NCBI GenBank assembly: GCA_009392095.1
Contig: VFHF01000182.1
Span: 1 to 55,796, forward strand
DNA length: 55,796 nt
Source of the DNA: SAR202 cluster bacterium
GTDB lineage: Bacteria; Chloroflexota; Dehalococcoidia; Lucifugimonadales; UBA3495
Direction of reading: 5' to 3'
Below, piece by piece: positions 8,853 through 55,706 of this stretch; positions within the stretch are counted from its first letter, which is position 1; each line of letters opens with the position of its first letter. The position numbers and the translations under genes are program-made. The notes beneath the pieces are model-generated. The model saw nothing but the letters and a program-made list of their open reading frames with translations, searched no databases and was not told the DNA's origin.

Positions 8853-9962
8853 TTAGCCTCGGACTTCCACCTCAAACGGGAAGACCATGTTGTTGCCGTA
8901 GCCCCGGCCGTCCCAAGGATTCGGGAATTCCATCGGCTGGGTGACTCCCAGCACGTTGGTGGCCCGGCACATGAGGGTATATTTACCCTCGGCGGGCGGG
9001 GTCCAGTTGTGTTCCCACCGGTACCAGGAGTAGCCTACCCGGTCGTGGAGTTTCTGGACCGGGTTCCAGGTCTCTCCGCCATCGGTGCTGATCTCAACTT
9101 CTTCGATGTCCTCTTCGCCGGACCAGGCGGCGCCGGCCAAGTTATAGCCACTGGTGGGAATGGTTTCGCCGGGTACCGGGTTGGTGATGATGGACTTCAC
9201 CTGAAGCTTATTGTAATAGCGGTACGGCTCTGGGCTGCCGGGCTCGTTCATAGTCATGTAGCGCTCGGTCATGTAGAAGCCTTTGAACTCATGGTCCAAG
9301 ACGTGGATGCCGACCAGCCACTTGACGGAGTTCATGCCGTACCAGCCAGAGACCAAGAGACGCAGCGGAAACCCGTGGTCCTTGGGCAACGGCTCTCCGT
9401 TCATCTCATAGGCCAAAATGGTGTCCTCGTGCAGGGCTTTGGCCATGGGCAGGCTGCGCTCGTAGGTGACTTCCGCGGGGTCGTTCACCACTTCGTCGGC
9501 ACCGTGATCGGCGCCTTCGAACATCACTTCGACCGCTGAGTCCTTGACTCCGGCCAGTTCCAGTACGTCCTTGAGGGAAACCCCGGCCCATTCCGCGTTG
9601 CCCATGATGCCGTGACCCTTGATCTGCTCCATCACAGAACTGATGCGCAGGGCCTTGGTGTAATAATCGGGCACCGGGCTGTTGCCGCAGCATTCGAAGG
9701 TTACTTGGAAGCGCTTTTGGGGCAACTTTTTGAGGTCTTCGAACGATAGTGTGACGGTCCGCTCAACTTCTCCGTCTATCTTCAGTTCAAAGGTGCTGAT
9801 ATCAATCTCAGGGCTGTCCTTCCAGTGGTTCCGGATGTAGAAAAGGTCGTTGGGTACGATGTTTTCTTGCAAGCCTTGCGGGGGCACGGCCCAGGTTCGA
9901 AGGCCGGCGTTTGTCGGGATGATCTGCGGTTCTGCTTTGGTGCCAATCTGTGGCAGGGCCAT
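8853..9962 (-). CDS. sulfite-oxidase-family molybdopterin oxidoreductase (SUOX fold), no signal peptide
   Basis: 369 aa. Mo-ligand Cys motif FECCGN. Conserved GFPLRLLVSGWYGMNSVKWL. C-terminal dimerisation/Ig-like domain. N-terminus lacks a twin-arginine motif. Confidence 0.85.
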   Translation of the reverse strand: MALPQIGTKAEPQIIPTNAGLRTWAVPPQGLQENIVPNDLFYIRNHWKDSPEIDISTFELKIDGEVERTVTLSFEDLKKLPQKRFQVTFECCGNSPVPDYYTKALRISSVMEQIKGHGIMGNAEWAGVSLKDVLELAGVKDSAVEVMFEGADHGADEVVNDPAEVTYERSLPMAKALHEDTILAYEMNGEPLPKDHGFPLRLLVSGWYGMNSVKWLVGIHVLDHEFKGFYMTERYMTMNEPGSPEPYRYYNKLQVKSIITNPVPGETIPTSGYNLAGAAWSGEEDIEEVEISTDGGETWNPVQKLHDRVGYSWYRWEHNWTPPAEGKYTLMCRATNVLGVTQPMEFPNPWDGRGYGNNMVFPFEVEVRG

Positions 9963-10013
9963 TTGGGCTCCTCCTCAAAATGTTTGCGTGATTTTCGTTA
10001 AGCTGAAAGGCGG

Positions 10014-10364
10014 CTATTCGAGGTGTTCCGTTTCTAGGTCTGCCGCTGGATATGCAATCAGCAGCAAGGCTGGCGTCCAGAGGTGATGAATCAGTTTGTG
10101 AGGCAGGCCCGGCGGGGCCAACAAGGTGGTGCCTGCCCGCACCGTCCGTACCTCGTCACCCAGAATCACCTGGATGGCACCGGTCAATACCTGGATGGAG
10201 ACATCCACCGGATGTGTGTGCATCCGGCCCTCGTAACCGGGAGATATCTCTACTTCTTTCACAGTCAATGATACCGCACCCTGGTCTTTAGATACCAGAT
10301 ACCGCTCCCGCACCCGCTCCATGGTCGGGGCTAGTCGGACATCTGCATGGTCGATTATCGGCAT
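10014..10364 (-). CDS. cupin domain protein
   Basis: 116 aa. Cupin motifs G..MHTHP and ..PPGLPHKL. Confidence 0.7.
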   Translation of the reverse strand: MPIIDHADVRLAPTMERVRERYLVSKDQGAVSLTVKEVEISPGYEGRMHTHPVDVSIQVLTGAIQVILGDEVRTVRAGTTLLAPPGLPHKLIHHLWTPALLLIAYPAADLETEHLE

Positions 10365-10398
10365 GGGTTCCTCCGGGTTTAGTTCGTTCTGCCGTTGG

Positions 10399-11592
10399 TT
10401 ACTTAACAGTTACAGGGTAGCCAACTATGGCACTGAAATTCTTTCTCATGTTGTTGTACCGGGGGTCGCGGGACTGAACCCGGCCCACCTCGTCGGTGGC
10501 TCGGGACATGATGTTGTACTTGCCCGCTTTGTCCGCGTCCCACCTGTAGGACCAGCGCACCCACATGAACCGGTCGCGTGGTTGTTCGATATGGGCTGAG
10601 TGCCAGGTGTCTCCGCCGTCAACGCTAACGTCCACTTCGGATATTGCGCCGGCGCCGCTCCAGGCGTAGCCGCGCACCATGTGTACGCCCCGGGTCATCT
10701 CTTCGGTGTCATCGTTGGGTTGGGTCACGATGGACTTGACGCCCAGTGTGGTGATGAGTTCCTTGTTGGGATCTTCTGGCGAGTCACCGTAGTAATAGAA
10801 CTCGTAGTGATACCAGCACTCAGGCATGTGGTCCAGTATCTCCAGGTCAGTGATCCATTTTACCGACCAGTTCCCCGACCAGCCAGGTACTAGCAGCCGG
10901 ACGGGCGCGCCGTGGAGGTGCTCAAGGAGTTGTCCGTTCTGCGCCCAGGCCAATATGGTGTCGGGATGGAGGGCCTTCTGTATGGGGAGGCCCTTGTCAT
11001 AGTAAAAGGGCTTGGTTCCCTCGGCGGCGGTGGCGGGCACTCCCTCGTCATTCCCGACGGCGCGCACGTAAAGGGACTTGTCCGAGAGACCAGCCGCGTT
11101 CAGTACCGCGGCTAACGGGACACCGGTCCATTCACTGGCGCTGAGGATCATGCACTCTTGAGTGCGGGAAGGTTTGGGGCCCTCATCCTTGAAATACTCA
11201 AAGAAAGTCGCATCGCTGCCTGAACATTCCATGACCGTACGAACGCTGCGGCCGGCGAAGCGCCTAAGCTGATCGAAGTTCAACGTTAGCTCGTTCTTGA
11301 CCTCGCCGTGAATCTTCAACTCCCATTGGTCTGTCGCCACCACCGGTGGGACAGCGAAGTGCTGCACGGTGTAGTGCAGGTCGGTGGGGGTGATCAGACC
11401 CTCCAGGTCCATCACCGGGGTGCGGATGCGTACAACGCGGCCCTCGTCGTCCATAAGGTGGACCGGGCTTAGGTCTTTGGTAGGCCAGCCGTGCCAATTG
11501 CCGGTCTTGTTGGCGTTGGCGGGGTCCGAGCCAATCGCGTCGTCCATGCGTAGAAAGTCGGGAATCGCGCCGTCTTGTCGTGTCGTCGCCAT
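10399..11592 (-). CDS. sulfite-oxidase-family molybdopterin oxidoreductase, second paralogue
   Basis: 397 aa. Motifs MECSGS and GAPVRLLVPGWSGNWSVKWI. No Tat or Sec signal. Confidence 0.85.
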   Translation of the reverse strand: MATTRQDGAIPDFLRMDDAIGSDPANANKTGNWHGWPTKDLSPVHLMDDEGRVVRIRTPVMDLEGLITPTDLHYTVQHFAVPPVVATDQWELKIHGEVKNELTLNFDQLRRFAGRSVRTVMECSGSDATFFEYFKDEGPKPSRTQECMILSASEWTGVPLAAVLNAAGLSDKSLYVRAVGNDEGVPATAAEGTKPFYYDKGLPIQKALHPDTILAWAQNGQLLEHLHGAPVRLLVPGWSGNWSVKWITDLEILDHMPECWYHYEFYYYGDSPEDPNKELITTLGVKSIVTQPNDDTEEMTRGVHMVRGYAWSGAGAISEVDVSVDGGDTWHSAHIEQPRDRFMWVRWSYRWDADKAGKYNIMSRATDEVGRVQSRDPRYNNMRKNFSAIVGYPVTVK

Positions 11593-11710: not shown

Positions 11711-12349
11711 TTAACAGTTGTCCCACTTCTTAGTGCGGAACGTGGTTATCTTTCCGGTCTCCGGGTCGAAGCTGTTGCGGTCTAGTGACCGGAGATCGTT
11801 GCCGTATACGTGAACCTCCACGGTTGGCCGGTCGGTGTGATTGTCCATCTGGTGAATCTCGTCTTCATCGGGAACCAGCAGGGTAATCTCACCGGGCTTG
11901 AACGTGGCGGCGCGGTCTTTCTCTAGCTTGGCGTAGCCATCCACATCGTGGTCGTCCACGCGGCGGTACCTGGTTTCAGTGATGCTGTTTTCCAGTATCC
12001 CAATCATGCCCCAGGTCCGGTGGTCATGGGGGCCAAGGTGGTCGCCGGCGCCCCAGACGACTGCGGTGACTTGCAGTCCACTCTCGCCCTGATAGAGCAT
12101 GCGCGAGGCGTGGTTGGGGCGGGGGCCGGCGCCCAGAGGAAGCCGGAATTCCAAAGGTATGGAATCTGGCGTGCTGACCAGCCGCTCAAGCCAAGCAGAA
12201 CCTTTGTCGAAGATCTGCTGGTCACCGGGTTGGCTCTTGAGCAAGGATTCCATGTCTTGAGTGAACTCTTCTAAGGAATACTTAACGGTGGCCAAGGCGC
12301 TCCTTCTTTCCGGGGCGGATAGACTGGTGTCCCGGAGCCTGAGATTCAC
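11711..12349 (-). CDS. cysteine-dioxygenase type I family (COG5553-like) thiol dioxygenase cupin
   Basis: 212 aa. Motif GPHDHRTWGMIGILEN followed by EIHQMDN, typical of the CDO/3-mercaptopropionate dioxygenase-like metal site. Confidence 0.65.
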   Translation of the reverse strand: MNLRLRDTSLSAPERRSALATVKYSLEEFTQDMESLLKSQPGDQQIFDKGSAWLERLVSTPDSIPLEFRLPLGAGPRPNHASRMLYQGESGLQVTAVVWGAGDHLGPHDHRTWGMIGILENSITETRYRRVDDHDVDGYAKLEKDRAATFKPGEITLLVPDEDEIHQMDNHTDRPTVEVHVYGNDLRSLDRNSFDPETGKITTFRTKKWDNC

Positions 12350-14373: not shown

Positions 14374-15186
14374 CTAGGCGGGTTTGTGGGCTACTACTTT
14401 GTATCCGGCGGTGTTGGTGGCAGGCCGTTCGGACCGGTCGTTCATGTAGTCTGCCTGCTCGCCGGCGAACTCGATGTCCGTGAACCCGGCGCGGATCAAC
14501 CGGTCGCGGTATACGTCCACATGCTCGGCGCCTGCTGTGCAGGACACCCAGTCCTCAGGCGACGAGACGCTGGGGCCTTCGTCGGTCAAGGCCATCACGT
14601 CGGAGAGGTGGATGCGGCCGCCGGGAGACAGGACACGGAAGCTTTCGCTGAACACAGCGTCCTTGTCGGGAGAGAGGCAGACCACGCAGTTGGAGATGAT
14701 CACGTCTACGCTGGAGTCGGGGATGGGCATCTTCTCCATTTCCCCCTGGACGAAGTCCACGTTCTCTATGCCTAGTTTGGCCTTGTTGGCACGGGCCAGT
14801 TCCAGCATGGCGGGGGTCATGTCCAGTCCGGTCACCTTGCCGGTGTCGCCGACCTGCTGGGAAGCAAGGAAGCAGTCGATGCCGCCCCCTGAGCCCAGAT
14901 CCAGTACCCGTTCACCGGGTTGCAGGCCCGCTAGGGCCGTGGGGTTGCCACAACCAGCTGAGGCCGCAATCGACTCCATCGGGAGCCCGCTTAGCTGGCC
15001 TTCGTTGTACAGCAGCATGGCGTGGTCAAGGTCCTCAACACCACAGCAATCGCCGTCGGTGGAACAGCCGCAGCCGTCGGACTCGGTATTCTCGAGTTCG
15101 GCTGGGGTGAGGCTGATCACCCGCTCCGCTCGGGCGCCGTAACGTTCTCGAACCAATTCTTTTATTTGGTCTTGTTCAGTGGACAT
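14374..15186 (-). CDS. arsM: arsenite S-adenosylmethionine methyltransferase
   Basis: 270 aa. SAM motif VLDLGSGGGIDCF. ArsM-type conserved Cys contexts ASAGCGNP, SNCVVCLSPDKD and VSCTAGAE. Confidence 0.85.
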   Translation of the reverse strand: MSTEQDQIKELVRERYGARAERVISLTPAELENTESDGCGCSTDGDCCGVEDLDHAMLLYNEGQLSGLPMESIAASAGCGNPTALAGLQPGERVLDLGSGGGIDCFLASQQVGDTGKVTGLDMTPAMLELARANKAKLGIENVDFVQGEMEKMPIPDSSVDVIISNCVVCLSPDKDAVFSESFRVLSPGGRIHLSDVMALTDEGPSVSSPEDWVSCTAGAEHVDVYRDRLIRAGFTDIEFAGEQADYMNDRSERPATNTAGYKVVAHKPA

Positions 15187-15221
15187 TTTTGTCCTCCCCT
15201 GATGTGTTTTTTGCCGGTTAT

Positions 15222-15611
15222 CTACTTGCCTGTTGGAAGGGCTTGTTTGATGCAGTCCTCAACGGTGGGTACCATCCGCTGCCAGACTTGGGCGGCGGCC
15301 CTGAAAGCCTCTTCGCCGGAGTCGGTCAGCCAGCACACCCGGCGTTGCCGCCCTTGGTGCTCTTCCATGCGCCAGTCAACGTAGCCGCCGTCTTGGAGCT
15401 CCTTCATTGTCGAGTAGACCATGGCCTCGGTGGGTTCGCAGCAACCTTGGCACGCTTCCTTCATGGCCTGGTTGATGCCGTAGCCGTGCACCGGTCCCTT
15501 GGCCAGTTGGGCCAAGAGCAGGAACCGGCATAGACTGCGCTTCACCAGGTTCTCCCAATACGCCTCGGTCTGCATGGCCATTTTCTTGGGTTCTCGTTTT
15601 ATGCTGGTCAT
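15222..15611 (-). CDS. PadR family transcriptional regulator
   Basis: 129 aa. Winged-helix PadR signature LLLAQLAKGPVHGYGINQAM..YSTMKELQDGGYV. Confidence 0.85.
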   Translation of the reverse strand: MTSIKREPKKMAMQTEAYWENLVKRSLCRFLLLAQLAKGPVHGYGINQAMKEACQGCCEPTEAMVYSTMKELQDGGYVDWRMEEHQGRQRRVCWLTDSGEEAFRAAAQVWQRMVPTVEDCIKQALPTGK

Positions 15612-39253: not shown

Positions 39254-39601
39254 ATGACCACCACTGAATGTATCTTTTGCAATATGGCCCAAGACCCAAT
39301 GCACGCTGCCCCGGTTTACCGGGACGACCGGGTCTTCGCCATCAAGGACATCAATCCTAAAGCCCCTGTGCATATGTTAATCATCCCCAACATGCACATC
39401 GCCTCCCTGGCCTACGTCGGGCCCGGACAGGTGCCGATCATGGGACACATGTTCGTGGTGGCCGAAGAGATCGCCCGCCGTGAGGGTGTTACTCTCAGCG
39501 GCTACCGGTTGGTGCTCAACCAGGGCGAAGACTCAGGCCAGGAAATTGTCCACCCACACATGCATCTCCTTGGTGGCAAGAAATTGGGAGCCATGGGGTA
39601 G
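39254..39601 (+). CDS. HIT family protein
   Basis: 115 aa. CIFC N-terminus and histidine triad HPHMHLLGG. Confidence 0.85.
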   Translation: MTTTECIFCNMAQDPMHAAPVYRDDRVFAIKDINPKAPVHMLIIPNMHIASLAYVGPGQVPIMGHMFVVAEEIARREGVTLSGYRLVLNQGEDSGQEIVHPHMHLLGGKKLGAMG

Positions 39602-39624
39602 GGCATATCACCTGGGATTCTTAA

Positions 39625-40203
39625 ATGCCCGAGTTGCTCCAACGCCTCCAGTACCGCCTGAAGTCTCTCCCCGACGGTCTGCAGGCCCACATCTACCGCG
39701 TGCGCGACGTAGCCCAAGAACTGGCCGCCTGCCATCAAGTCGACCCTAAGCGCGCTGAGCTTGGCGCTCTGGCACATGATGTCTGCCGCGCTGTGCCTGG
39801 CGATGACCTCCTTAAGATGTCCGCTGACCTGGGCGTAACCGTGACTGACGTAGACCGCGACTTCCCGCTTTTGCTCCACGGACCTGTGGGAGCTGAACTG
39901 CTGCGACAGGAGGAAGGCCTCAACGATCTCGGCCTATATCAAGCCGTGCGTTGGCATTCAACTGCTCACGCTTCGTTAGACGACTTAGGTAAGCTGGTTT
40001 TTCTGGCCGATAAATTGGACCCGCAGAAGTCGGCCGTCTACTCCTACCAGGCCCGGCTGCACGAAACGGCGCAGGAGAGCCTGGACCTGGCGTTGCTTGA
40101 ATTCCTGTCCAGGGAGATGGCAGTCCGCCTAGAGAAAGGGGAAACGGTCCATCCGGCCAGCGTGGATGCCCGTAACAACCTTGTTCTCCGGCTCAAAAGT
40201 TAA
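39625..40203 (+). CDS. yqeK: HD-domain phosphohydrolase, YqeK-like (Ap4A hydrolase family)
   Basis: 192 aa. Motifs HIYRVRDVA..LGALAHDVCR, LLLHGPVGAELL, AVRWHS and FLADKLDP match the YqeK layout. Confidence 0.65.
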   Translation: MPELLQRLQYRLKSLPDGLQAHIYRVRDVAQELAACHQVDPKRAELGALAHDVCRAVPGDDLLKMSADLGVTVTDVDRDFPLLLHGPVGAELLRQEEGLNDLGLYQAVRWHSTAHASLDDLGKLVFLADKLDPQKSAVYSYQARLHETAQESLDLALLEFLSREMAVRLEKGETVHPASVDARNNLVLRLKS

Positions 40204-40331
40204 CCGTCGGGATTGAACCTCAAGAGAAATTGGCGCATCATAGTTTCGGAGCAGTACCTTATCAGCGCATGGTTACTGTTCATTCATTGTTTCAGTGTGC
40301 CGGAGGGGGAAACCGGCTGGAGAGGTAACTG

Positions 40332-40685
40332 ATGGAGATCAATCTGACGCCTGAGGCCGTGGAGCATATCCAGAGCAAGGGCGGCCAAGCGGCCGTGGAC
40401 TTGATTTCCTTCTCATCTTGAGGAGGTAACTCCACTGAGGTATCGGTCGATACCCGAATCTCCCGCCGCGATATCACTCCCTACCGCAAGGTAACGCAGG
40501 ATGGCGTGGAATTGTTTATTCTGCCCAACCTGGCCCAGCACACCACCACCATGAACATCGACAGCAAGAAATTCCTTTTTTTCCGACACCTGAAAGCAGA
40601 CCTGGAATTGGAAAACGGCCTGGTGTTGGGACGTCGTGCTTCCTGGGCTTAACGTTCGACTGTTCCGCTACGGCCGGCCTGTAGG
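40332..40685 (+). CDS. candidate small selenoprotein (HesB/IscA-like layout); UGA-30 read as Sec
   Basis: ATG 40332 lies 6 nt after GGAGAGG. There is an in-frame TGA at 40419-40421 and the frame stays open for 87 more codons to TAG 40683-40685. No alternative start occurs before 40551. A SECIS-like hairpin lies 17 nt downstream of the UGA. Not present in the supplied ORF track. The C-terminal ~20 aa are uncertain. Confidence 0.5.
40439..40454 (+). promoter_or_regulatory. putative bacterial SECIS apical hairpin
   Basis: Perfect 6-bp stem GGUAUC/GAUACC with loop GGUC. The loop G-U lies 27-28 nt after the U of the UGA. A second mini-hairpin, GGAG-GUAA-CUCC (40422-40433), directly follows the UGA. 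Confidence 0.45.
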
Positions 40686-40955
40686 CGACGGTTCCGTAAA
40701 TCATGGCGAAATAGAAATTTCGTTCAGCCCTGACGCCCCAGAGCACGTTCAGAAATGAGGGAACCTGGCCGTTTTTGACCTGCAATGTTTTGATCATTGA
40801 GCCGATTCCGCTGCCGAAATCGCGGTCAGCACATACCTTCTCGGGATACGGTCGAATATTGGGTGCATGTCGGAATGATAGCTGGTGTCGCTTACGTTGC
40901 TGTTCGGCGCTAGTCCTCGGTCTTACCGAATTAGCGGCCAATCCGGCTAGGCCGC

Positions 40956-41931: not shown

Positions 41932-42267
41932 ATGACCGCTTTAGACTGGCCTATCACTTCCAGCCCCGTTTTAGACGCCGTGCCTGAATTTTACCATTAC
42001 GAAGATACGGGTTGTGAGGTCTCCGCAGCTTGCCTCGACTGCCCACTGCCCCAGTGTAAGTATGATGATCCAGCCTGGTTCCAGCGCAACCGGCGGTTGG
42101 CACGGGACTTCAAGATCTGGTCGGCCATGCAGCAGGATGGCCTGTCGGTTGAAGAAGCTGCGGAGCGGTTCTCAGTAACAGTGCGGACCATTTTCCGAAT
42201 CATGCGCCGTTGCCGTGACGCCGCCGTCATAGACCAGGAAGAGCTGGCGGTATTTGCCGCGGATTAG
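41932..42267 (+). CDS. small Cys4 + helix-turn-helix protein (hypothetical DNA-binding)
   Basis: 111 aa. C-x5-C-x2-C-x4-C cluster (GCEVSAACLDCPLPQC), then an HTH-like LSVEEAAERFSVTVRTIFRIMRR. Confidence 0.55.
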   Translation: MTALDWPITSSPVLDAVPEFYHYEDTGCEVSAACLDCPLPQCKYDDPAWFQRNRRLARDFKIWSAMQQDGLSVEEAAERFSVTVRTIFRIMRRCRDAAVIDQEELAVFAAD

Positions 42268-43299: not shown

Positions 43300-45165
43300 T
43301 CAGATTGACGTGATAATGTTTTTATAAGGCCGGGTCATCAGATTCCAGCTATTACTGGCGGCATCGAACTTAGAGTTGACGAATACTCTCCAATTGGCGT
43401 CGTCGAGGTCAGGGAAGTCGGACCGGTAATAATAACCCGGCCAACGGGTCTCCTTTCGATGTAGCAGATGCCGCAGATGGGCTTCACCGACCCAAGTCCG
43501 GTGGATCAACTCCCAACACCGCATCAACTCATGTCGGTTTCGGGCTGCAAGGTGGGTGAGGTCTTCCCTGAACATCTCCATCAACTCGATTCCCCTTTCC
43601 AGGGTCGGTTGATTAGTGGTGTACCCAGTAGATGCGCCAGCGCCGTACTCGTCCATGATCTTCTGTAGCCGAACTAGGCCCTGTTTCGGGGTCATATAGT
43701 TGGGGTTTATCTCTGCTGATGAACTGGCTCCCTTATGTTTCTCGAAGGTTTCCAACGGCGCCCAGATGGTCTCTTGAATGCCACGGACATTGGCGTCGCT
43801 TACGGTTGGGGCGCTGGGGTTGTCGGCCACGAAATTGACGGCGGACTTGGCGGCGATACGGCCTTCAGTGAAAGAGCCGGACGAGAATTTGTGTGGCGCG
43901 GCACCTACCCCGTCTCCCGCGGCGAACAGTCCCTGGATCGTAGTCATACGGTTGTAACCCCAGAAATACTCGCCGCTTGCGATGTCTTCGGGGCCGCTGA
44001 CCCATGCGCCCGCCTCGCCGGAATGGGAACCCATGATGTAAGGCTCGGCCAGCACGACCTCGCTTGGCGTATCTTCGGGCGCTATGTTTTGGGATGCCCA
44101 GGTCAGTGCCTGGGCAACTGTCATATCCAGGAAATCTTCCCATGCTTCATCGCGGACTTTGTCCATCTTAGCCGGGTCTCCATCCGCTATCTTCTGCATC
44201 GCCACGTCGGTCCGCATATACATGGGGCCTAGGCCGTCTTTGATGTCCAAGAACATCTGATGGTTCCGGAGCGGAGTGGGTGTTGGGACAGCAGAACCGT
44301 AGGGCTCATACTTCTTCAATTCGTCCGCGCGGGTCACGGTATAATCTTCGCCATTGGCATTAAGCACTTGGGCGTGGAAATATTGGAACCACATACCCAC
44401 GGGTCCGTATCCATCTTTGAATCTGGTGGGCACGAATCGATGTTCCATCTGAGTCATTTCGGTCCCGATGGGAATCATGAGGCCGTAAGCAGCACCAGTG
44501 GCGAACACCGAGTACCACGTGCGGCCAAGCCCCTCACCCACGGAACGAGGGCGGAAAACGTTTGAAGCGCCACCGCAAGTGATTATTACGGCTTTAGCCC
44601 GGAAGACGTAGATCTTGTTCTCCCTCACTGCGAAACCGACCGCTCCAGCGATTCTTTGAGGATCATCAGCGTCGGTCAAAAGATGCGTGATCGAGACCCG
44701 TTCATAGATGTTCTCAGGCCCGATCGCTGTACGCGCTGGTTCGGCAGCGATAGGTTTTATGGACTCGCCGTGAATCGGGATCTGCCACCGCCCGACCCGT
44801 TCGTATTCGCCATTGTCTTTTTTCCAGATGGGAAGTCCCCACTCTTCCAGGAGGTGAACAGAGTTATCGACGTGTCGTCCCACGTCGTAAACCAGGTCTT
44901 CCCTTGCCAGTCCCATCATGTCATTTACTACGTAGTGGACGAAATCTTCTGGGGTATTCCAGCCGTTCCGCTGACCCATGTAGCAGTTTATGGCGGAAAG
45001 CCCTTCACCCGTGGCCCCGCTACGCTCGATGACGGCCTTTTCCACCATGACTACCTTGAGATCTCCGCTCCAGTATTTCGACTCGAATGCCGCCCCGCAG
45101 CCGGACATTCCTCCGCCGATGATTAGAATGTCGCAATCGATGGTTTCTGTGATAGGAAGGGTCAA
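43300..45165 (-). CDS. aprA: adenylylsulfate (APS) reductase alpha subunit
   Basis: 621 aa. TTG start 8 nt after AAGGAG. FAD fold DILIIGGGMSGCGAA. Size and colinearity with AprA. Immediately downstream of aprB. Confidence 0.9.
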   Translation of the reverse strand: MTLPITETIDCDILIIGGGMSGCGAAFESKYWSGDLKVVMVEKAVIERSGATGEGLSAINCYMGQRNGWNTPEDFVHYVVNDMMGLAREDLVYDVGRHVDNSVHLLEEWGLPIWKKDNGEYERVGRWQIPIHGESIKPIAAEPARTAIGPENIYERVSITHLLTDADDPQRIAGAVGFAVRENKIYVFRAKAVIITCGGASNVFRPRSVGEGLGRTWYSVFATGAAYGLMIPIGTEMTQMEHRFVPTRFKDGYGPVGMWFQYFHAQVLNANGEDYTVTRADELKKYEPYGSAVPTPTPLRNHQMFLDIKDGLGPMYMRTDVAMQKIADGDPAKMDKVRDEAWEDFLDMTVAQALTWASQNIAPEDTPSEVVLAEPYIMGSHSGEAGAWVSGPEDIASGEYFWGYNRMTTIQGLFAAGDGVGAAPHKFSSGSFTEGRIAAKSAVNFVADNPSAPTVSDANVRGIQETIWAPLETFEKHKGASSSAEINPNYMTPKQGLVRLQKIMDEYGAGASTGYTTNQPTLERGIELMEMFREDLTHLAARNRHELMRCWELIHRTWVGEAHLRHLLHRKETRWPGYYYRSDFPDLDDANWRVFVNSKFDAASNSWNLMTRPYKNIITSI

Positions 45166-45210
45166 TTCAGGTGCTCCTTGTCTTTAGGTAACCCAGGAAT
45201 ATAGCAATGG

Positions 45211-45657
45211 TTAATTGGGGGTGGGCAACCGGTCTACACCGAGCCACTGGGAGTCTCCAGCCAGGCTCTGGTTTTTAAGATCAGTTTGCCGGTCTTCGGT
45301 AAATCCTTCGTACGGGACCACTGAGCCAGCGGGCTTGGTTCGTGAAGGGTAGGTAAATTCGAAGGTACGGCCGTCTCGGAAACGGACATCCCAACGAAGC
45401 CCATCTTCGGTCCTGTGCGGTTGGACCGCTGCTCCCATAGGGACAAAGTCCGCGTAACCTCGAACGTGGATGGCCTCTGTAGGGCACAACTTAACGCATG
45501 CGTAGCACTCAGAGCACATCTCGGGTTCTTGGTTGAAACCCTTATTTACGTCTTGATCCAAAACCATCAAGTCGTTGGGGCAGATATAAACGCAGAGCGG
45601 GCCTTGGTGCTCGCCTGCGCAGGCATTACAGGCGTTGGGGTCTACATAGGTTGGCAT
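45211..45657 (-). CDS. aprB: adenylylsulfate reductase beta subunit
   Basis: 148 aa. MPTYVDPNACNAC..LCVYICPNDLM and CSECYACVKLCP ferredoxin clusters, followed by the AprB-type C-terminal tail. AAGAGGA RBS. Confidence 0.9.
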   Translation of the reverse strand: MPTYVDPNACNACAGEHQGPLCVYICPNDLMVLDQDVNKGFNQEPEMCSECYACVKLCPTEAIHVRGYADFVPMGAAVQPHRTEDGLRWDVRFRDGRTFEFTYPSRTKPAGSVVPYEGFTEDRQTDLKNQSLAGDSQWLGVDRLPTPN

Positions 45658-45712
45658 TCTGATCCTCTTAGCGGTCGGTTGTTTTCAAGTTGATTTTAGG
45701 TTCAGATTCATT

Positions 45713-45742
45713 AAAAAACCCCCGCTCGTTTTCCAGCGGAGG
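45713..45742 (-). terminator. intrinsic terminator between sat and aprB
   Basis: On the minus strand: CCUCCGCU-GGAAAACG-AGCGGGGG (8 bp including one G-U), then UUUUUU. Starts 8 nt after the sat stop. Confidence 0.7.
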
Positions 45743-45750
45743 TTCAAAGG

Positions 45751-47019
45751 TCATCCGGGGCGATGCTCGGTACAGGTACAACAGTCTAGGGTAGGCAAAG
45801 AGAATACCGGCGCCCGGTTTTCTAGGTATTCCGGGGTGACAAATGCCGAACCGGAATTGTATTTATCAGCGCATTCCCGAACGATTTCCAATATCTCAGA
45901 CCTCAATGTAGTTGGGGCCGGCTCTTGCCCACCGTCTATGATCCTTCGGATGACCGTTCCCGCCAAGTCCTCTTTCTGGTCTCGGTGGCCGCAATGGCCT
46001 TCGTATGCAACGCTCTGGCATACTGGGCAATACCACCACTCAAGTGTGAGCACCGATCTTATTCCTAGGTCTGGCAAATTCTGAAAGACCTCATGAGCGG
46101 CATAGGTATCGTAATAGTTTCCGACACCAGCATGGTCTCTTCCGAACATATGATGGCTGCAGCCCAGGTTTTTACGCACGATCGCATGAAAAACAGCCTC
46201 TCGCGGTCCGGCATAGCGCATGTCCCACATTAGTGTGGAAGTCTCATGGATGTGGGGCAGGAAAAAACCAGCCTCCCTTAGGCGACGATGGGCCAACACG
46301 ATGGCCTCATCGATGTAATCGCCCGGCTTTTTCTCGCCAATCACAGCGCTGACAAGAATACCATCGGCTTCTGATGAAAGCAAAGCCCCCTTCATCATCC
46401 ATTCGTGACCCACGTGAGGAACATTGCGGGTTTGATGGGCCACTGCCGTGCTCCAACCCAACTCAGAGAACCGCTGCCTCAATTCGCGTGGAGTTTTCCA
46501 AAACGGGGCGAAAGGCGGGTTGATGATCGGCGAGTTGACCAGAGTCACCGGACCGCCAAGGAACGTGTCTTCCAGGCCGAGGGTCCGCATCACGCCAGGA
46601 TGGTCTTGGTCCGCTGTCCCGTAGACATGCCGGGCCATGGTCTCCTGGTCGTAGGAGAATATCTCAGCCACGTCTAGCACGGCCAGCGCCTGGTCTTGGT
46701 AAGTTAGCAGAACAGAGTCACCCTGCTTCACACCAACTTCCGCAATGGCTTGGCTGGAAACGTCGAATACTATGGGGATACTCCATACCAGTCCATTGGT
46801 CAGGGTCATGTTTTTGACGACGGAATCTACCTGCGAACTAACCATGAACCCGTCCAGCGGAGAGAAGAACCCATAACATAGGTTGATTACCTCTCGTGCG
46901 ATGCTATCCCGCACAGCGATCCGGGTTAGGCCGGCCGCAAGGTGAGGCGCGTCCTTCGGAGAGGCGATCTTTTCGATCAGTTCGCCACCGTGGGGAGACA
47001 ATGTGTTGTCTATTGCCAT
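45751..47019 (-). CDS. sat: sulfate adenylyltransferase (ATP sulfurylase)
   Basis: 422 aa. Motifs HQTRNVPHVGHE and FGRDHAGVGNYY. Confidence 0.9.
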   Translation of the reverse strand: MAIDNTLSPHGGELIEKIASPKDAPHLAAGLTRIAVRDSIAREVINLCYGFFSPLDGFMVSSQVDSVVKNMTLTNGLVWSIPIVFDVSSQAIAEVGVKQGDSVLLTYQDQALAVLDVAEIFSYDQETMARHVYGTADQDHPGVMRTLGLEDTFLGGPVTLVNSPIINPPFAPFWKTPRELRQRFSELGWSTAVAHQTRNVPHVGHEWMMKGALLSSEADGILVSAVIGEKKPGDYIDEAIVLAHRRLREAGFFLPHIHETSTLMWDMRYAGPREAVFHAIVRKNLGCSHHMFGRDHAGVGNYYDTYAAHEVFQNLPDLGIRSVLTLEWWYCPVCQSVAYEGHCGHRDQKEDLAGTVIRRIIDGGQEPAPTTLRSEILEIVRECADKYNSGSAFVTPEYLENRAPVFSLPTLDCCTCTEHRPG

Positions 47020-49875: not shown

Positions 49876-50311
49876 AAAAGCCAAACGCTTCGAAGATATT
49901 CAGATCGGCGACGAGATCACGCCCCTGGTCAAAGAGATCGGTATGGCCCGCATGATGGCCTACGGGGCGGCGACCTGGGACTTCATCAGGCTGCACTACG
50001 ACGCTGACTACGCTCGGGAGCTGGGTTTCGAAGCCCCATTTGTCGACGGCCAGATGATGGGCGGGTTCTTGACCCAGCATGTCCAGGATTGGGCTGGGCC
50101 GGGAGCGTTCCTCCGCAAGCTGGCCTTTCGCAACCGGGTCATGGCATATCCCGGCGACTCGCTGACCTGCCACGGCGTGGTCACCGATGTCTCATCTACT
50201 GAAGAGGGTGGCATGGTTGAGTGCGACCTTTGGATGGAGAACCAACGGGGCGAGAAGGTGGTCGACCCGGCCAGCGCGTTACTTCGTTTCCCTTTGATTG
50301 CAGGCAGCTAG
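49868..50311 (+). CDS. MaoC-like dehydratase, C-terminal-type hotdog subunit
   Basis: Internal ATG 49868 overlaps the upstream stop by 8 nt (ATGATTGA). AATWDFIRLHYDADYARELGF..DGQM pattern. Confidence 0.75.
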   Translation: MIEKAKRFEDIQIGDEITPLVKEIGMARMMAYGAATWDFIRLHYDADYARELGFEAPFVDGQMMGGFLTQHVQDWAGPGAFLRKLAFRNRVMAYPGDSLTCHGVVTDVSSTEEGGMVECDLWMENQRGEKVVDPASALLRFPLIAGS

Positions 50312-50315
50312 CACA

Positions 50316-51548
50316 ATGCTTGAACAAGGCGCTCTATCGGGCCTAAAGGTCGTTGAGCTTACAGACCGGGTGTCCGGGCAGGTAGCCGGGTCGTTCTGTG
50401 CCCGGTTGCTGGGCGATGCCGGCGCCGACGTTGTGAAGGTGGAGCCGCCTGAAGGCGATGCCTACCGCAGAAACGGACCCTATCCGGCTGGCGTCCCTGA
50501 CCCGGACCACAGCGGACTTTTTCTTTATCTGAACTCCAACAAACGTGGTGTGAGACTCGATATTGAATCTCCAGAGGGCCGGGCTGCGTTCTTGGACCTG
50601 GTTTCAACGGCGGATTTCTTGGTCTTGGGCCAGAACAGCTTAGAAGTTGAGCGTCTGGGACTGCGCCGGGAGAAGTTGGCGGTGGCAGATTCTGGGCTGA
50701 TAGTTACAACCATCACGCCTTTCGGTCTTGCCGGTCCTAACAGCGTCTATCTTGGCGACGACCTGATCGCCATCAGCGCCGGGGGGATGGCTTTTGCAAC
50801 ACCTGGTATCCCAGACCGGGTTGGGGATCTTGCCTCGGAACCACCCCTTCGTTCCAATACCCATATGGCCGGCTACCTGGCTGGTGTCCAAGGTGCGATG
50901 GCCAGTCTCGCGGCGTTGCTATCAAGAACAATTCAAGGCACTGGCTGTGAGATCGACCTCAGCATGCAGGAAGCTGTGGCCGCCGTGATGCCCTTTGAGC
51001 TGGCCCATGCTTCCTACCATGAGGCCAAACCACGCAAGCCGGAGATCTTTGGGGTGATGCCCAACGCGTATCTCCCCTGCAAGGACGGCTACGTGGTGGT
51101 TATGGCAGTGATGGAAGCCCACTGGCGCAATCTGATGGACCTGGCCGATAACCCGGACTGGGCGGAACTCGAGGTGTTTTCCTCTGGCGTGGAGCGCGCC
51201 CGAAATTGGGACGCCCTGGAACCGTTGCTGTTGGAATGGACCATGTCCCACTCCGGCGCTGAGATCGCGAAATTGGCTCAGGAACGGGGCATCCCCTGCT
51301 TCCCGGCGTACACAGTTGGCCAGATGGTGGACTCGTCCCATGTGACCGAGCGTGGCTTCATGGTAGACATGCAGGGTCCCGGCGGAGAGAAGTTCAAGCT
51401 GCCCGGCTATCCCGTCCGCCTGGAGCGCACTCCGTGGCAGTTGTTCCGCCCGGCCCCCAAGCTGGGCGAACACACATCTGAGGTGCTGGCGGAGTGGCTG
51501 GGATATTCGGCCGTCGAACTAGCAGCCGTAGGCGTGTGGGCCAGATGA
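50316..51548 (+). CDS. CaiB/BaiF family III CoA-transferase, subunit/paralogue 1
   Basis: ATG 50316 lies after the upstream stop. LSGLKVVELTDRVSG..LLGDAGADVVKVEPP N-terminus is typical of family III CoA-transferases. Confidence 0.85.
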   Translation: MLEQGALSGLKVVELTDRVSGQVAGSFCARLLGDAGADVVKVEPPEGDAYRRNGPYPAGVPDPDHSGLFLYLNSNKRGVRLDIESPEGRAAFLDLVSTADFLVLGQNSLEVERLGLRREKLAVADSGLIVTTITPFGLAGPNSVYLGDDLIAISAGGMAFATPGIPDRVGDLASEPPLRSNTHMAGYLAGVQGAMASLAALLSRTIQGTGCEIDLSMQEAVAAVMPFELAHASYHEAKPRKPEIFGVMPNAYLPCKDGYVVVMAVMEAHWRNLMDLADNPDWAELEVFSSGVERARNWDALEPLLLEWTMSHSGAEIAKLAQERGIPCFPAYTVGQMVDSSHVTERGFMVDMQGPGGEKFKLPGYPVRLERTPWQLFRPAPKLGEHTSEVLAEWLGYSAVELAAVGVWAR

Positions 51549-52756
51549 CGTCGCTGCCGTTAGAGGGGATCCGCATCGCCGATTTCGGCCAGATTATCGC
51601 CGTTCCCTATACCGCCCAGATGCTGGCCTGGCTGGGAGCAGAAGTGATTCTGATTGAGAATGAGCAACGGCTTACCACCCGGATATGGCCGCCGTTCGCC
51701 GAGGCCGAGCCTGGCGTCAACCGCAGCGGCGGGTTCAACACGGTCAACTCCAGCAAGATGAGCTGCACCTTGAACCTCAGAGACCCCGAAGGCGTGGCCC
51801 TAGCTAAGCAGATCATCGCTGTAAGCGACGTAGTGGTTGAAAACTACTCCAGTGGCGTTATGGAACGCATGGGACTAGGTTATGTCGACGTACGGGGCTT
51901 ACGGCCCGACATCGTGTATCTGTCGCTGGGGGCCTTTGGACGCACCGGCCCAATGAAAGACCTGGTCGGTTTTCACAGCGTGATCAACCTATTCAGCGGA
52001 CTGGCTTCCGTTACCGGGCATAAAGGGTCGCACCCACGGATCATGGGCGGCCTGTTCCCCGACGCGTTCAGCGGCTGTTACTGCGTTCTAGCTCTGCTCG
52101 AAGCTCTTTACCACCGGGCCAACACGGGGGAAGGACAGCACATCGAAGTTGCCATGACTGAGACCCTGGCTACGCTCTTGCCCGAGGCGGTCATGGAATA
52201 TACGCTGGACGGCACAGAGCCAGAGCGAGTGGGCAATCGCCATCAGGGCAAGGCGCCCCACGACATGTTCCGATGTCAGGGAGAAGAGAATTGGGTGGCG
52301 ATCTCTGTAGAGAATGATGCTCAGTTTCAGGCGCTGGCGCATACGGCTGGTAGTCCAGGCTGGGCAGACGACCCCAGATTCGCAACCGTCGAAGCGCGAT
52401 TAGACCATCAAGATGAACTAGGATGCTTGGTCCACCGGTGGACCGAAAGGATGGACGTCCAAGAAGTTGTCGAGAAACTGCAGGCTGTGGGGGTGCCAGC
52501 CGGGCCGGTATTGGACTCGGCCCAGGTGTTGGCCGACCCGCACATGGTTGCAAGGGGCTTTGTGCAGTTGCCAGACCACCCGGAGGTGGGACCACGGCCG
52601 CTTGGTGCTTTCTCCTGGGCCGTTGACGGCAGACGGCCCGGAACCGCCGGCAGCGCTCCGCTGATGGGCGAACACAACCGGAAGGTGATTCAAGAGCTAT
52701 TACAGGTGCCGGAGCAAGAATTCGAGCGTCTGGTCAAGAGCGGGGCAATCAGTTGA
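51545..52756 (+). CDS. CaiB/BaiF family III CoA-transferase, subunit/paralogue 2
   Basis: ATG 51545 overlaps the upstream TGA (ATGA). LEGIRIADFGQIIAVPYTAQMLAWLGAEVILIE. Confidence 0.85.
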   Translation: MTSLPLEGIRIADFGQIIAVPYTAQMLAWLGAEVILIENEQRLTTRIWPPFAEAEPGVNRSGGFNTVNSSKMSCTLNLRDPEGVALAKQIIAVSDVVVENYSSGVMERMGLGYVDVRGLRPDIVYLSLGAFGRTGPMKDLVGFHSVINLFSGLASVTGHKGSHPRIMGGLFPDAFSGCYCVLALLEALYHRANTGEGQHIEVAMTETLATLLPEAVMEYTLDGTEPERVGNRHQGKAPHDMFRCQGEENWVAISVENDAQFQALAHTAGSPGWADDPRFATVEARLDHQDELGCLVHRWTERMDVQEVVEKLQAVGVPAGPVLDSAQVLADPHMVARGFVQLPDHPEVGPRPLGAFSWAVDGRRPGTAGSAPLMGEHNRKVIQELLQVPEQEFERLVKSGAIS

Positions 52757-54516: not shown

Positions 54517-55236
54517 TTAATTGGTCTCATGTTCTTCGGTTGCTCCGTCTGCATCCGCCCTATTATCGCCACCATTTTTCGGATCATTCTCAGTAGAAAG
54601 CTTTGCCGCTTCGGCTGCGGACTGCTGCTGATCCATCCAGTTCTGGAACCATCGGCGGTACTCGTCCAGGGCTGGTGGCGACACGTAGAACACCTCGATG
54701 TCGCTGGGGAATTGGACCTGATGGCGTTCGCTGATCAACAGCAGCCCTGTCTCGTTCTCCCCGAGGGTGTTGTCGATCTGGTCGGCGATGTGTTCGTAGC
54801 GTTGGCGGTTACTGTCGGCATGCCATTCCTGGAGCCTCGATCCAACATTAGCGCTGGCCAGAGGAATCATCATGCACCGCTGGAGATCCAGGGTTTCCAG
54901 CAGAACATCCATGTCCTCGGTTGCCTCCAGAACTGCGCCGGACAGGGTCTTGGCGGTGATGAAGCCATGGCTGCGCTGGTCGGCGGCGCCCAGTTGTTCC
55001 AGGCCTTCGTCTTCGCCTACGGTCAGGCTTTCATGGTAGATGTGCTGTAGGCCTCCCAGAGCGGCCTCCAGGGCATCTACCTGGGTCTGCATCTGCTCCC
55101 AGTAATTCTGAAGGACCTCCGCCCCGGCAGGGTCGTCTGCTTGGGGTCCGTAGATAAGGGGCACCAGTAACAGCTTGCGCCGGCCGTCATACTGGCTCGC
55201 CGTAGGGCGCTGAATCCGGCCCAGTTCTTCCGCCAT
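54517..55236 (-). CDS. conserved hypothetical protein
   Basis: 239 aa. GGGAGG RBS. Protein-like composition with an acidic/basic C-terminal tail. Family not recognised. Confidence 0.6.
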   Translation of the reverse strand: MAEELGRIQRPTASQYDGRRKLLLVPLIYGPQADDPAGAEVLQNYWEQMQTQVDALEAALGGLQHIYHESLTVGEDEGLEQLGAADQRSHGFITAKTLSGAVLEATEDMDVLLETLDLQRCMMIPLASANVGSRLQEWHADSNRQRYEHIADQIDNTLGENETGLLLISERHQVQFPSDIEVFYVSPPALDEYRRWFQNWMDQQQSAAEAAKLSTENDPKNGGDNRADADGATEEHETN

Positions 55237-55355
55237 GATGCCGCCTCCCGGTGCGGTGAAGTCGCGTGTAACGCCGATTGGAATGACCCGTCACCATGAA
55301 TTGTATTGACGCTCAGGGACGGAGGCAAGTTGCCGTGGTGGTTGGGAATGGCGTT

Positions 55356-55364
55356 TGCTAAACT
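55356..55364 (+). promoter_or_regulatory. extended -10 element TGCTAAACT upstream of the zinc-ribbon gene
   Basis: Lies 43 nt upstream of ATG 55408. Confidence 0.3.
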
Positions 55365-55407
55365 GGAGAAGCTCCGAACATCGATGTTTTCCCCAGGAGA
55401 TGCAATT

Positions 55408-55614
55408 ATGGTCGCCACCAACTTCCACTGCGCCAAGTGCGCAAACCAAGAGTACGAGACCAGTGAATTCAGGGCGACGGGTGGGTTCTTGTCCAAGATA
55501 TTTGACATCCAGAACCGCAAATTCACCACGGTGACCTGCACCCGTTGCAAGTACACAGAAATCTACAAGGCCGACAGCAGCGCGTTGGGAAATATATTTG
55601 ATTTGTTTACTTAG
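55408..55614 (+). CDS. zinc-ribbon protein (Zn_ribbon_13/DUF2082-like)
   Basis: Start at ATG 55408, 8 nt after AGGAGA. 68 aa with a CxxC..CxxC pattern (FHCAKCAN...VTCTRCKYTEIY). Confidence 0.7.
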   Translation: MVATNFHCAKCANQEYETSEFRATGGFLSKIFDIQNRKFTTVTCTRCKYTEIYKADSSALGNIFDLFT

Positions 55615-55616
55615 TT

Positions 55617-55706
55617 TGGCGGAGAGAGTGGGATTCGAACCCACGATGAAGTTGCCCCCATACCGGTTTTCGAGACCGGCGCTTTCGTCCGCTCAGCCAT
55701 CTCTCC
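55617..55706 (-). tRNA. tRNA-Ser (anticodon CGA), CCA encoded
   Basis: The reverse complement folds as a class II tRNA: acceptor GGAGAGA/TCTCTCC, anticodon stem CCGGT/ACCGG with loop CUCGAAA, a long variable arm, T-arm GTGGG-TTCGAAT-CCCAC, then G-CCA. Confidence 0.9.

Follow-up and report, generated by a model that had tools for sequence, protein, structure and literature searches.

Does the in-frame TGA at positions 40419–40421 end a short reading frame, or is it translated as selenocysteine within a longer one? The question arises in the window, by which we mean the whole stretch of 55,796 nucleotides of SAR202 DNA that was analyzed, where a plus-strand frame starting at ATG 40332 meets this TGA after 29 codons and then stays open. 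A sequence-only reading of the window had put the locus forward as a candidate small selenoprotein gene, and this proposal is supported by the comparative, HMM and fold evidence described below. We consider it very probable that 40332–40652 on the plus strand is a genuine, so far unannotated selenoprotein gene of marine SAR202/Dehalococcoidia, whose UGA is read as selenocysteine (Sec) via a SECIS element. The elements of the reading frame are:

40319–40325, plus strand: Shine-Dalgarno-like GGAGAGG, 6 nt 5' of ATG 40332, read directly from the DNA.
40332–40652, plus strand: the very probable selenoprotein coding sequence; by translation 29 codons, UGA (Sec30), 76 codons and TAA, with a product of 106 aa.
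40419–40421, plus strand: the in-frame UGA, very probably selenocysteine at residue 30; TGA in 41 of 41 lineages, Cys in distant homologues.

Codons 1–29 of the gene encode MEINLTPEAVEHIQSKGGQAAVDLISFSS. The ribosome-binding motif, its distance of 6 nt from the start codon and the open frame beyond the TGA are all present as the sequence-only reading had described them, and purine-rich GAGG-like motifs occupy the same place in the orthologous loci. The length of the frame had been overestimated: instead of 87 codons after the TGA, a product of 117 aa and an end at 40685, the DNA gives 76 codons and 106 aa, with the terminal TAA at 40650–40652. The translated product contains no cysteine at all. 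TGA serves as the normal stop in 8 of the 35 Pfam-supported genes of the window, and the genome is therefore not recoded, in agreement with the sequence-only reading.

For the comparison between lineages, one genome per GTDB species was scanned, which yielded 38 loci, all of them from Dehalococcoidia/SAR202/Chloroflexota MAGs. Together with the window, locus L001 and the SAR202 MAG Io17-Chloro-G9 (L005) they form a set of 41 lineages. Each of the 38 loci starts with ATG, has TGA as codon 30 and encodes a protein whose sequence is conserved before as well as after this codon. In the full set codon 30 is invariably TGA (41 of 41), in contrast to the true stops at the end of these genes, which vary (TAA in 20, TAG in 15 and TGA in 6). 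The 29 N-terminal codons evolve as coding sequence in these 41 lineages, with invariant residues spread over many synonymous codons.

This pattern bears on the reading in which the UGA is a true stop, be it in a pseudogene or between two ORFs, a 29-aa peptide and an independently started product. In public assemblies only a C-terminal fragment is annotated, or nothing, and some lineages do have a GTG or ATG at codon 34–35, both of which would suit such a reading. A genuine stop, however, is difficult to reconcile with a codon that is never TAA or TAG, and with purifying selection on the protein in both halves, which are furthermore predicted to fold as one IscA-like domain. In the window the first in-frame start codon after the TGA does not come before codon 59, yet residues 31–58 are conserved. 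The earlier statement that no ATG, GTG or TTG occurs between the TGA and 40551 was too strong, since an in-frame GTG at 40506 and TTG at 40512 exist; the argument against separate initiation that was built on it nevertheless holds, because both codons lie 3' of the conserved residues 31–58. We regard a true stop as highly improbable.

An error in sequencing or assembly, with TGC, TGT or TGG as the true codon, has a negligible chance of accounting for the TGA. It could be invoked on the strength of one public gene call, P0001 (L001:119–439, L002), which is full-length and shows Trp at residue 30. The underlying DNA, however, reads TGA, and the Trp stems from the use of genetic code 4 in gene calling. 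Five independent assemblies of the window population, obtained from different samples, all have TGA at this site, and sequencing error, which the earlier reading had named as a point to be checked, is therefore excluded; the 38 species genomes likewise all have TGA. As a side observation, gene calling with code 4 can leave selenoproteins concealed or wrongly labeled in catalogues of metagenome proteins.

Immediately downstream of the UGA lie the elements of the predicted recoding signal:

40422–40438, plus strand: spacer of 17 nt between UGA and hairpin, fixed in length among the Sec forms in a gap-free alignment of 40 sequences.
40439–40454, plus strand: predicted SECIS core hairpin with a 6-bp stem GGUAUC/GAUACC and the apical loop GGUC (40445–40448), overlapping codons 36–41 (EVSVDT).
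40422–40463, plus strand: possible lower stem, inferred, formed by GGAG (40422–40425) with CUCC (40460–40463).

A perfect GGUAUC-GGUC-GAUACC hairpin 17 nt after the UGA had already been described from the sequence, and it is indeed found there, its arms GGTATC (40439–40444) and GATACC (40449–40454) pairing perfectly. A lack of conservation in orthologous loci had been named as grounds for refutation; the hairpin is kept in all 38 of them, and 36 of the 40 sequences in the alignment share the 16 nucleotides without change. Every stem cell is paired (240 of 240 in the 40 sequences), compared to 14–51% when the partners are slid against each other. L018 and L020 (and L019) have the stem GGUGUC/GACACC, in which one A-U pair has been replaced by G-C through a change on both sides. 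The loop is GGUC in 40 of the 41 Sec forms and AGUU in the remaining one (L030). The G-U at loop positions 2–3 never varies, neither in this AGUU loop nor in the GGUA loop of L003, a relative without Sec that is described further below.

The hairpin also leaves its mark on codon usage. Synonymous-site entropy at codons 36–41 is 0–0.38 bit in the 41 lineages, as against mostly ~1.1–2.3 bits at other conserved codons with four- or six-fold degeneracy and 0.3–1.0 bit at those with two-fold degeneracy. Val at codon 37 is encoded by GTA in 38 of 41 lineages, and GTA is rare at other Val codons. The genes of the Cys-form homologues have no hairpin, and the EVSVDT peptide varies in them (EAAIDT, EIALDT, ELAADT and others), so that the invariance among the Sec forms reflects a constraint on the RNA. 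With frozen synonymous sites, a pair changed on both sides and absence from the Cys forms, the structure is conserved beyond the coding need.

In bacterial SECIS elements the apical loop is found 16–37 nt after the UGA (PMC10778597). The loop in the window starts 23 nt after the UGA and is thus inside this range. The sequence-only reading had given GGUC as the loop of the E. coli fdhF SECIS and had judged the spacing in the window to be about 5 nt longer; both statements agree with the fdhF locus, which shows TGA, 18 nt and then GGTC. Like the fdhF element, the structure in the window is a stem-loop inside the ORF just 3' of the UGA, with an apical GGUC and a conserved G-U. It differs from fdhF in that the upper stem is a perfect 6-bp helix without bulged U and the loop is located 5 nt farther from the UGA. 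In contrast to fdhF and to bacterial SECIS elements in general, the lower stem of the window clade is short and unsupported by covariation.

For this lower stem 81% of the cells are paired in the window clade (22–49% in slid controls), with covariation no better than in the controls. A clade of sponge-associated and long-read sequences has a longer lower stem that starts directly after the UGA, with a minimum free energy of about −35 kcal/mol; here, too, covariation is not above the controls, and for this reason the lower stems are listed as possible only. The stability of the hairpin is not unusual with respect to shuffled sequences (z = 0.57), and the minimum-energy fold of the single sequence does not contain it. 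An Rfam scan of 40200–40800 with E-values up to 10 resulted in chance matches only, with no SECIS family among them. On the evidence of aligned sequences, we take the hairpin at 40439–40454 to be a bona fide bacterial SECIS element, for which binding of SelB is predicted.

To classify the protein, the translation with U replaced by C was compared with the NCBIfam model NF041239, annotated as 'CC/Se motif family (seleno)protein' and 'Moor_selen_rel'. It scored 45.4 bits (cutoff 40) over model positions 1–89 of 91. Pfam's counterpart of this model is PF28096 (CC_Se_fam), for which relatives of the protein carry precomputed assignments. The CC/Se family had been mentioned in the sequence-only reading as a known selenoprotein family. 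Among 5.8 billion proteins 58 matches were obtained, mostly C-terminal fragments of 60–75 aa and many with PF28096; the fragments arise because gene callers stop at the UGA. A HMMER search of 1.84 billion cluster representatives yielded 40 clusters only. The full-length clusters P0069, P0073, P0081, P0092, P0094, P0095 and P0096 are of the Cys form: they share a G-C-G motif and have a further Cys close to the C-terminus. Sec30 is aligned by BLASTP with the Cys of P0069 and P0073, and P0094, which is above the NF041239 cutoff, can be aligned without gaps and has Cys at column 30. The spacing D-x6-U versus D-x6-C matters in this comparison, because MAFFT, when run with X at the Sec position, shifts the Sec/Cys alignment by one residue. 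The column of the UGA is thus occupied as one would look for in a selenoprotein, a point that the earlier reading had asked about: TGA in the 38 orthologue loci and Cys in distant full-length homologues.

The CC/Se family is characterized by the motif CxxU, and its selenoprotein was first predicted in Moorella thermoacetica (2026 review, PMC13188914). The window protein shares with this family homology over the full length (~90–106 aa) and Sec or Cys in the same column, in a turn after the second strand. In comparison to CxxU, however, it has Phe at position −3 and no partner Cys, which leaves the motif that marks membership incomplete. Sister SAR202 clades show other arrangements, UxxC (U-A-G-C) in clade 2 and CxxxU in Io17-Chloro-G9. 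The second Cys that the Cys-form relatives have near their C-terminus is likewise missing from the SAR202 Sec forms. Since the HMM cutoff is passed but the partner Cys is absent, we treat the protein as part of a divergent subfamily: judged by the curated HMM, it belongs to the known CC/Se family, within a SAR202 subfamily that lacks the partner Cys. None of the public sources names these SAR202 genes as selenoproteins, and we found no direct description of SAR202 selenoproteins in the literature.

Two forms of the gene have a sense codon at position 30. In L003 (L003:203–523, ENA ERZ24945626 NODE_25043, contig coverage 1.39), a homologue with 69% identity, GGA (Gly) replaces TGA, new Cys residues are found at 26 and 28, and the hairpin is retained with the loop GGUA. 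Either Sec has been lost in this sequence, or the contig, with its low coverage, contains an error. L057:533–838 and L058:280–585 (ENA, two samples) have CGA (Arg) at codon 30 of a homologue that is 47% identical (P0097) and retain the hairpin in the stem variant GGUGUC-GGUC-GACACC. L003 and L057/L058 have the appearance of descendants of Sec forms in which the SECIS persists as a fossil. With Gly in the one and Arg in the other, it follows that not all lineages depend on Sec at this position.

The same relatives can be cited in favor of a different decoding, in which a standard amino acid (e.g. Trp, Cys, Arg or Gly) is inserted at the UGA and the hairpin aids a programmed switch between stop and read-through: they keep the hairpin, and the column evidently tolerates ordinary residues. 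The absence of Sec machinery genes from the DNA at hand can be added to this; selA, selB, selD and a gene for tRNA-Sec were found neither within the 55.8-kb window nor in the fetched loci, and ARAGORN scans of the window and of 39 loci were likewise negative for tRNA-Sec. On the other hand, Cys is found at exactly this column in distant homologues, as is classic for Sec/Cys pairs; the GGUC loop of the hairpin is of the fdhF type, with its invariant G-U at the right distance; and the curated description of the family is that of selenoproteins. Dehalococcoidia, moreover, include selenoprotein-rich genomes. We consider insertion of a standard residue very unlikely and prefer decoding as Sec. As to the background of the lineage, the COGs of SelA and SelB are present in each of the sponge-symbiont bins 16, 22 and 127, for which a SAR202 single-cell genome is the nearest relative by 16S (PMC5649159). 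Genes for tRNA-Sec have been reported for Chloroflexi (PMC5389517), and SAR202 MAGs carry GrdB (bioRxiv 2022.01.25.477282). The ten selenoprotein-richest bacteria in BSepDB include two Dehalococcoidia MAGs, with 49 and 46 such genes (PMC13326102).

The fold was modeled with AlphaFold (AF2) for the homologue P0001 (80% identity with the window protein), which contains the artefactual Trp at residue 30. An alignment consisting mostly of C-terminal fragments led to a pLDDT of 43.6; after inclusion of full-length Cys homologues the pLDDT was 86.9 with a pTM of 0.76, and the model comprises a single domain. The strands formed by residues 19–29 and 32–40 make up one hairpin with residue 30 at the turn. 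This strand hairpin spans the position of the UGA, and in the model both halves of the protein therefore form one domain.

A Foldseek search of the PDB with the P0001 model gave structures of the IscA/SufA/HesB type as the top 11 matches, 9a4q_B among them being unrecognisable as such from its title. The best match was SufA (PDB-entry 2d2a) with an E-value of 7.6e-5, followed by IscA (1x0g, 1r94, 1s98), these four with a TM-score of ~0.54 and a probability of 1.00, and then by 2apn, 2p2e, 1nwb and DsrR (2k4z). At the sequence level the relationship is faint. The score for Pfam PF01521 (Fe-S_biosyn, IscA/HesB) is 17.6 bits and thus below the gathering threshold of 26.3, and only 2 of 26 family members match this model at E < 0.1. 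An hhalign comparison with E. coli IscA places the G-C-G of the family on Cys35 of IscA, a weak match with a probability of 9%. A sequence search of the PDB gave nothing significant, the best hint being DsrR (2k4z) at an E-value of 1.1. The resemblance to HesB/IscA-like proteins that had been noted from the sequence alone is borne out at the level of the fold. From the model we are confident that the window protein would adopt an IscA/SufA (HesB-type) fold, with Sec30 at the position of Cys35 in E. coli IscA.

Like the P0001 model, the A-type Fe-S carriers IscA, SufA and ErpA have this fold, and the Sec is located at the site of their first ligand Cys (Cys35). In contrast to IscA and SufA, the C-terminal C-G-C ligand pair is absent, leaving only the first of three ligand positions occupied, by Sec. 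Without C-G-C, a single chain cannot build the cluster site of three Cys. The HesB-like selenoproteins (TIGR01911) are likewise small and HesB/IscA-related, and their Sec lies close to the site of the first ligand (PMC1794560, PMC13188914). Their motif, however, is UxGP, whereas the window protein has S-S-U-G-G, and TIGR01911 did not match it at E-values up to 10; we regard the two as separate families. DsrR (2k4z) resembles the window protein in combining an IscA fold with the loss of the canonical Cys ligands, but differs in having neither Sec nor Cys at the site, and the sequence similarity is not significant.

We propose the following mechanism for the expression of the gene. During translation, the UGA at 40419–40421 would be decoded as selenocysteine and not as a stop. 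The hairpin 17 nt downstream with its loop GGUC would act as a bacterial SECIS element. SelB in complex with GTP and Sec-tRNA(Sec) would bind the loop, presumably via its G and U, and, once bound, would bring the Sec-tRNA(Sec) to the UGA in the A site of the ribosome. The product would be a single-domain CC/Se protein of 106 aa with Sec30 in the turn between strands 2 and 3. This recoding mechanism is well supported by the comparative evidence, and we hold it to be correct in all likelihood.

The possible function of the protein is best discussed together with its genomic neighborhood. Upstream of the gene lie two genes in the same orientation:

39254–40203, plus strand: upstream neighbours, identified by Pfam as a HIT-family gene (39254–39601) and an HD-domain (yqeK-like) gene (39625–40203).

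The gene order ACAD-HIT-HD-selenoprotein gene is kept in almost all of the 38 loci and in L005. The gap of 128 nt between the HD gene and the selenoprotein gene contains no terminator-like or plus-strand promoter-like sites, and all three genes (HIT, HD and selenoprotein) probably share one transcript. On the 3' side a convergent enoyl-CoA hydratase gene and then a conserved ORF of 111 aa follow in nearly all loci.

Because the window protein has no Cys, Sec30 would be its sole chalcogen nucleophile. It may work between molecules, either in a homodimer, with a metal or cluster bridge or a diselenide at the IscA-like interface, or by selenenyl-sulfide exchange with a partner. The protein would then be a small redox or carrier protein that is presumably co-expressed with the HIT and HD genes. 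This proposal is a tentative one; it is a real possibility that we would not call probable. A more far-reaching variant, in which the SAR202 proteins are a functionally distinct, Cys-free offshoot of the IscA fold, appears unlikely to us. Their single selenol would act between subunits or partners, for example by carrying metal, sulfur or selenium in a selenium-dependent manner, in connection with the operon of the HIT/HD nucleotide hydrolases, and the Gly and Arg forms would be lineages that are losing the Sec trait.

The locus is of use for genome annotation as well as for the selenium biology of SAR202. Gene callers miss the selenoprotein gene, which is either absent from the annotation or listed as 'hypothetical protein, partial'; once it was rescued by a wrong genetic code that turned UGA into Trp. 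Pelagic and sponge-associated SAR202/Dehalococcoidia would keep at least one selenoprotein almost universally. This near-universal retention implies a selenium requirement in a very abundant lineage of the dark ocean. For the CC/Se family, the model would provide a structural anchor, namely the IscA/HesB fold with Sec at the position of a ligand Cys. The sequences also constitute a clean natural set of SECIS elements, with 41 Sec forms, 2 sense-codon forms with the hairpin and Cys forms without it, which should be useful to train selenoprotein finders.

Some further observations concern the neighboring genes. The HD protein encoded at 39625–40203 occurs with identical sequence in 112 blocks of a public assembly collection, including 30–70-kb contigs that come from several ocean metagenomes, and the population represented by the window is therefore widespread. 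The 111-aa ORF mentioned above is located at 41932–42267 on the plus strand, belongs to no Pfam family and has an N-terminal Cys cluster, CEVSAACLDCPLPQC. Nearly all SAR202 loci have it beside the gene for enoyl-CoA hydratase, at 59–95% identity. Two copies of the selenoprotein gene (L033 and L039) are found ~3.0 Mb apart on a single contig of a Dehalococcoidia MAG (CBDFLW010000004.1), each with HIT, HD, enoyl-CoA hydratase and 111-aa ORF neighbors; they stem either from the duplication of a segment or from a chimeric assembly.

We also looked through the window for other selenoprotein genes, defined by an in-frame TGA, a frame open on both sides and a hairpin with an N-G-U-N loop. Only the gene at 40332 stood out. 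The candidates at 14374–15336 and 54517–55644, both on the minus strand, were rejected, as their upstream parts look non-coding. The first of them overlaps a gene for a SAM methyltransferase (Methyltransf_31/25/11) at 14374–15186 on the minus strand, which has a Cys-rich N-terminus, DGCGCSTDGDCCG. This gene was rejected as a second selenoprotein gene: an in-frame TGA lies upstream at 15261, and the sequence preceding it is not coding-like.

Elsewhere in the window, sulfur-oxidation genes are located on the minus strand at 43300–47019, 8853–11592 and 11711–12349. Among them are genes for an AprA-like flavoprotein and for an ATP sulfurylase, which flank AprB in the gene calls of related loci, as well as two sulfite-oxidase-type molybdopterin enzymes and a cysteine-dioxygenase-like gene. 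Finally, two adjacent genes for family III CoA-transferases are found on the plus strand at 50298–51548 and 51494–52756. Their listed ORFs overlap by 55 nt, and the second gene probably begins farther downstream than listed.
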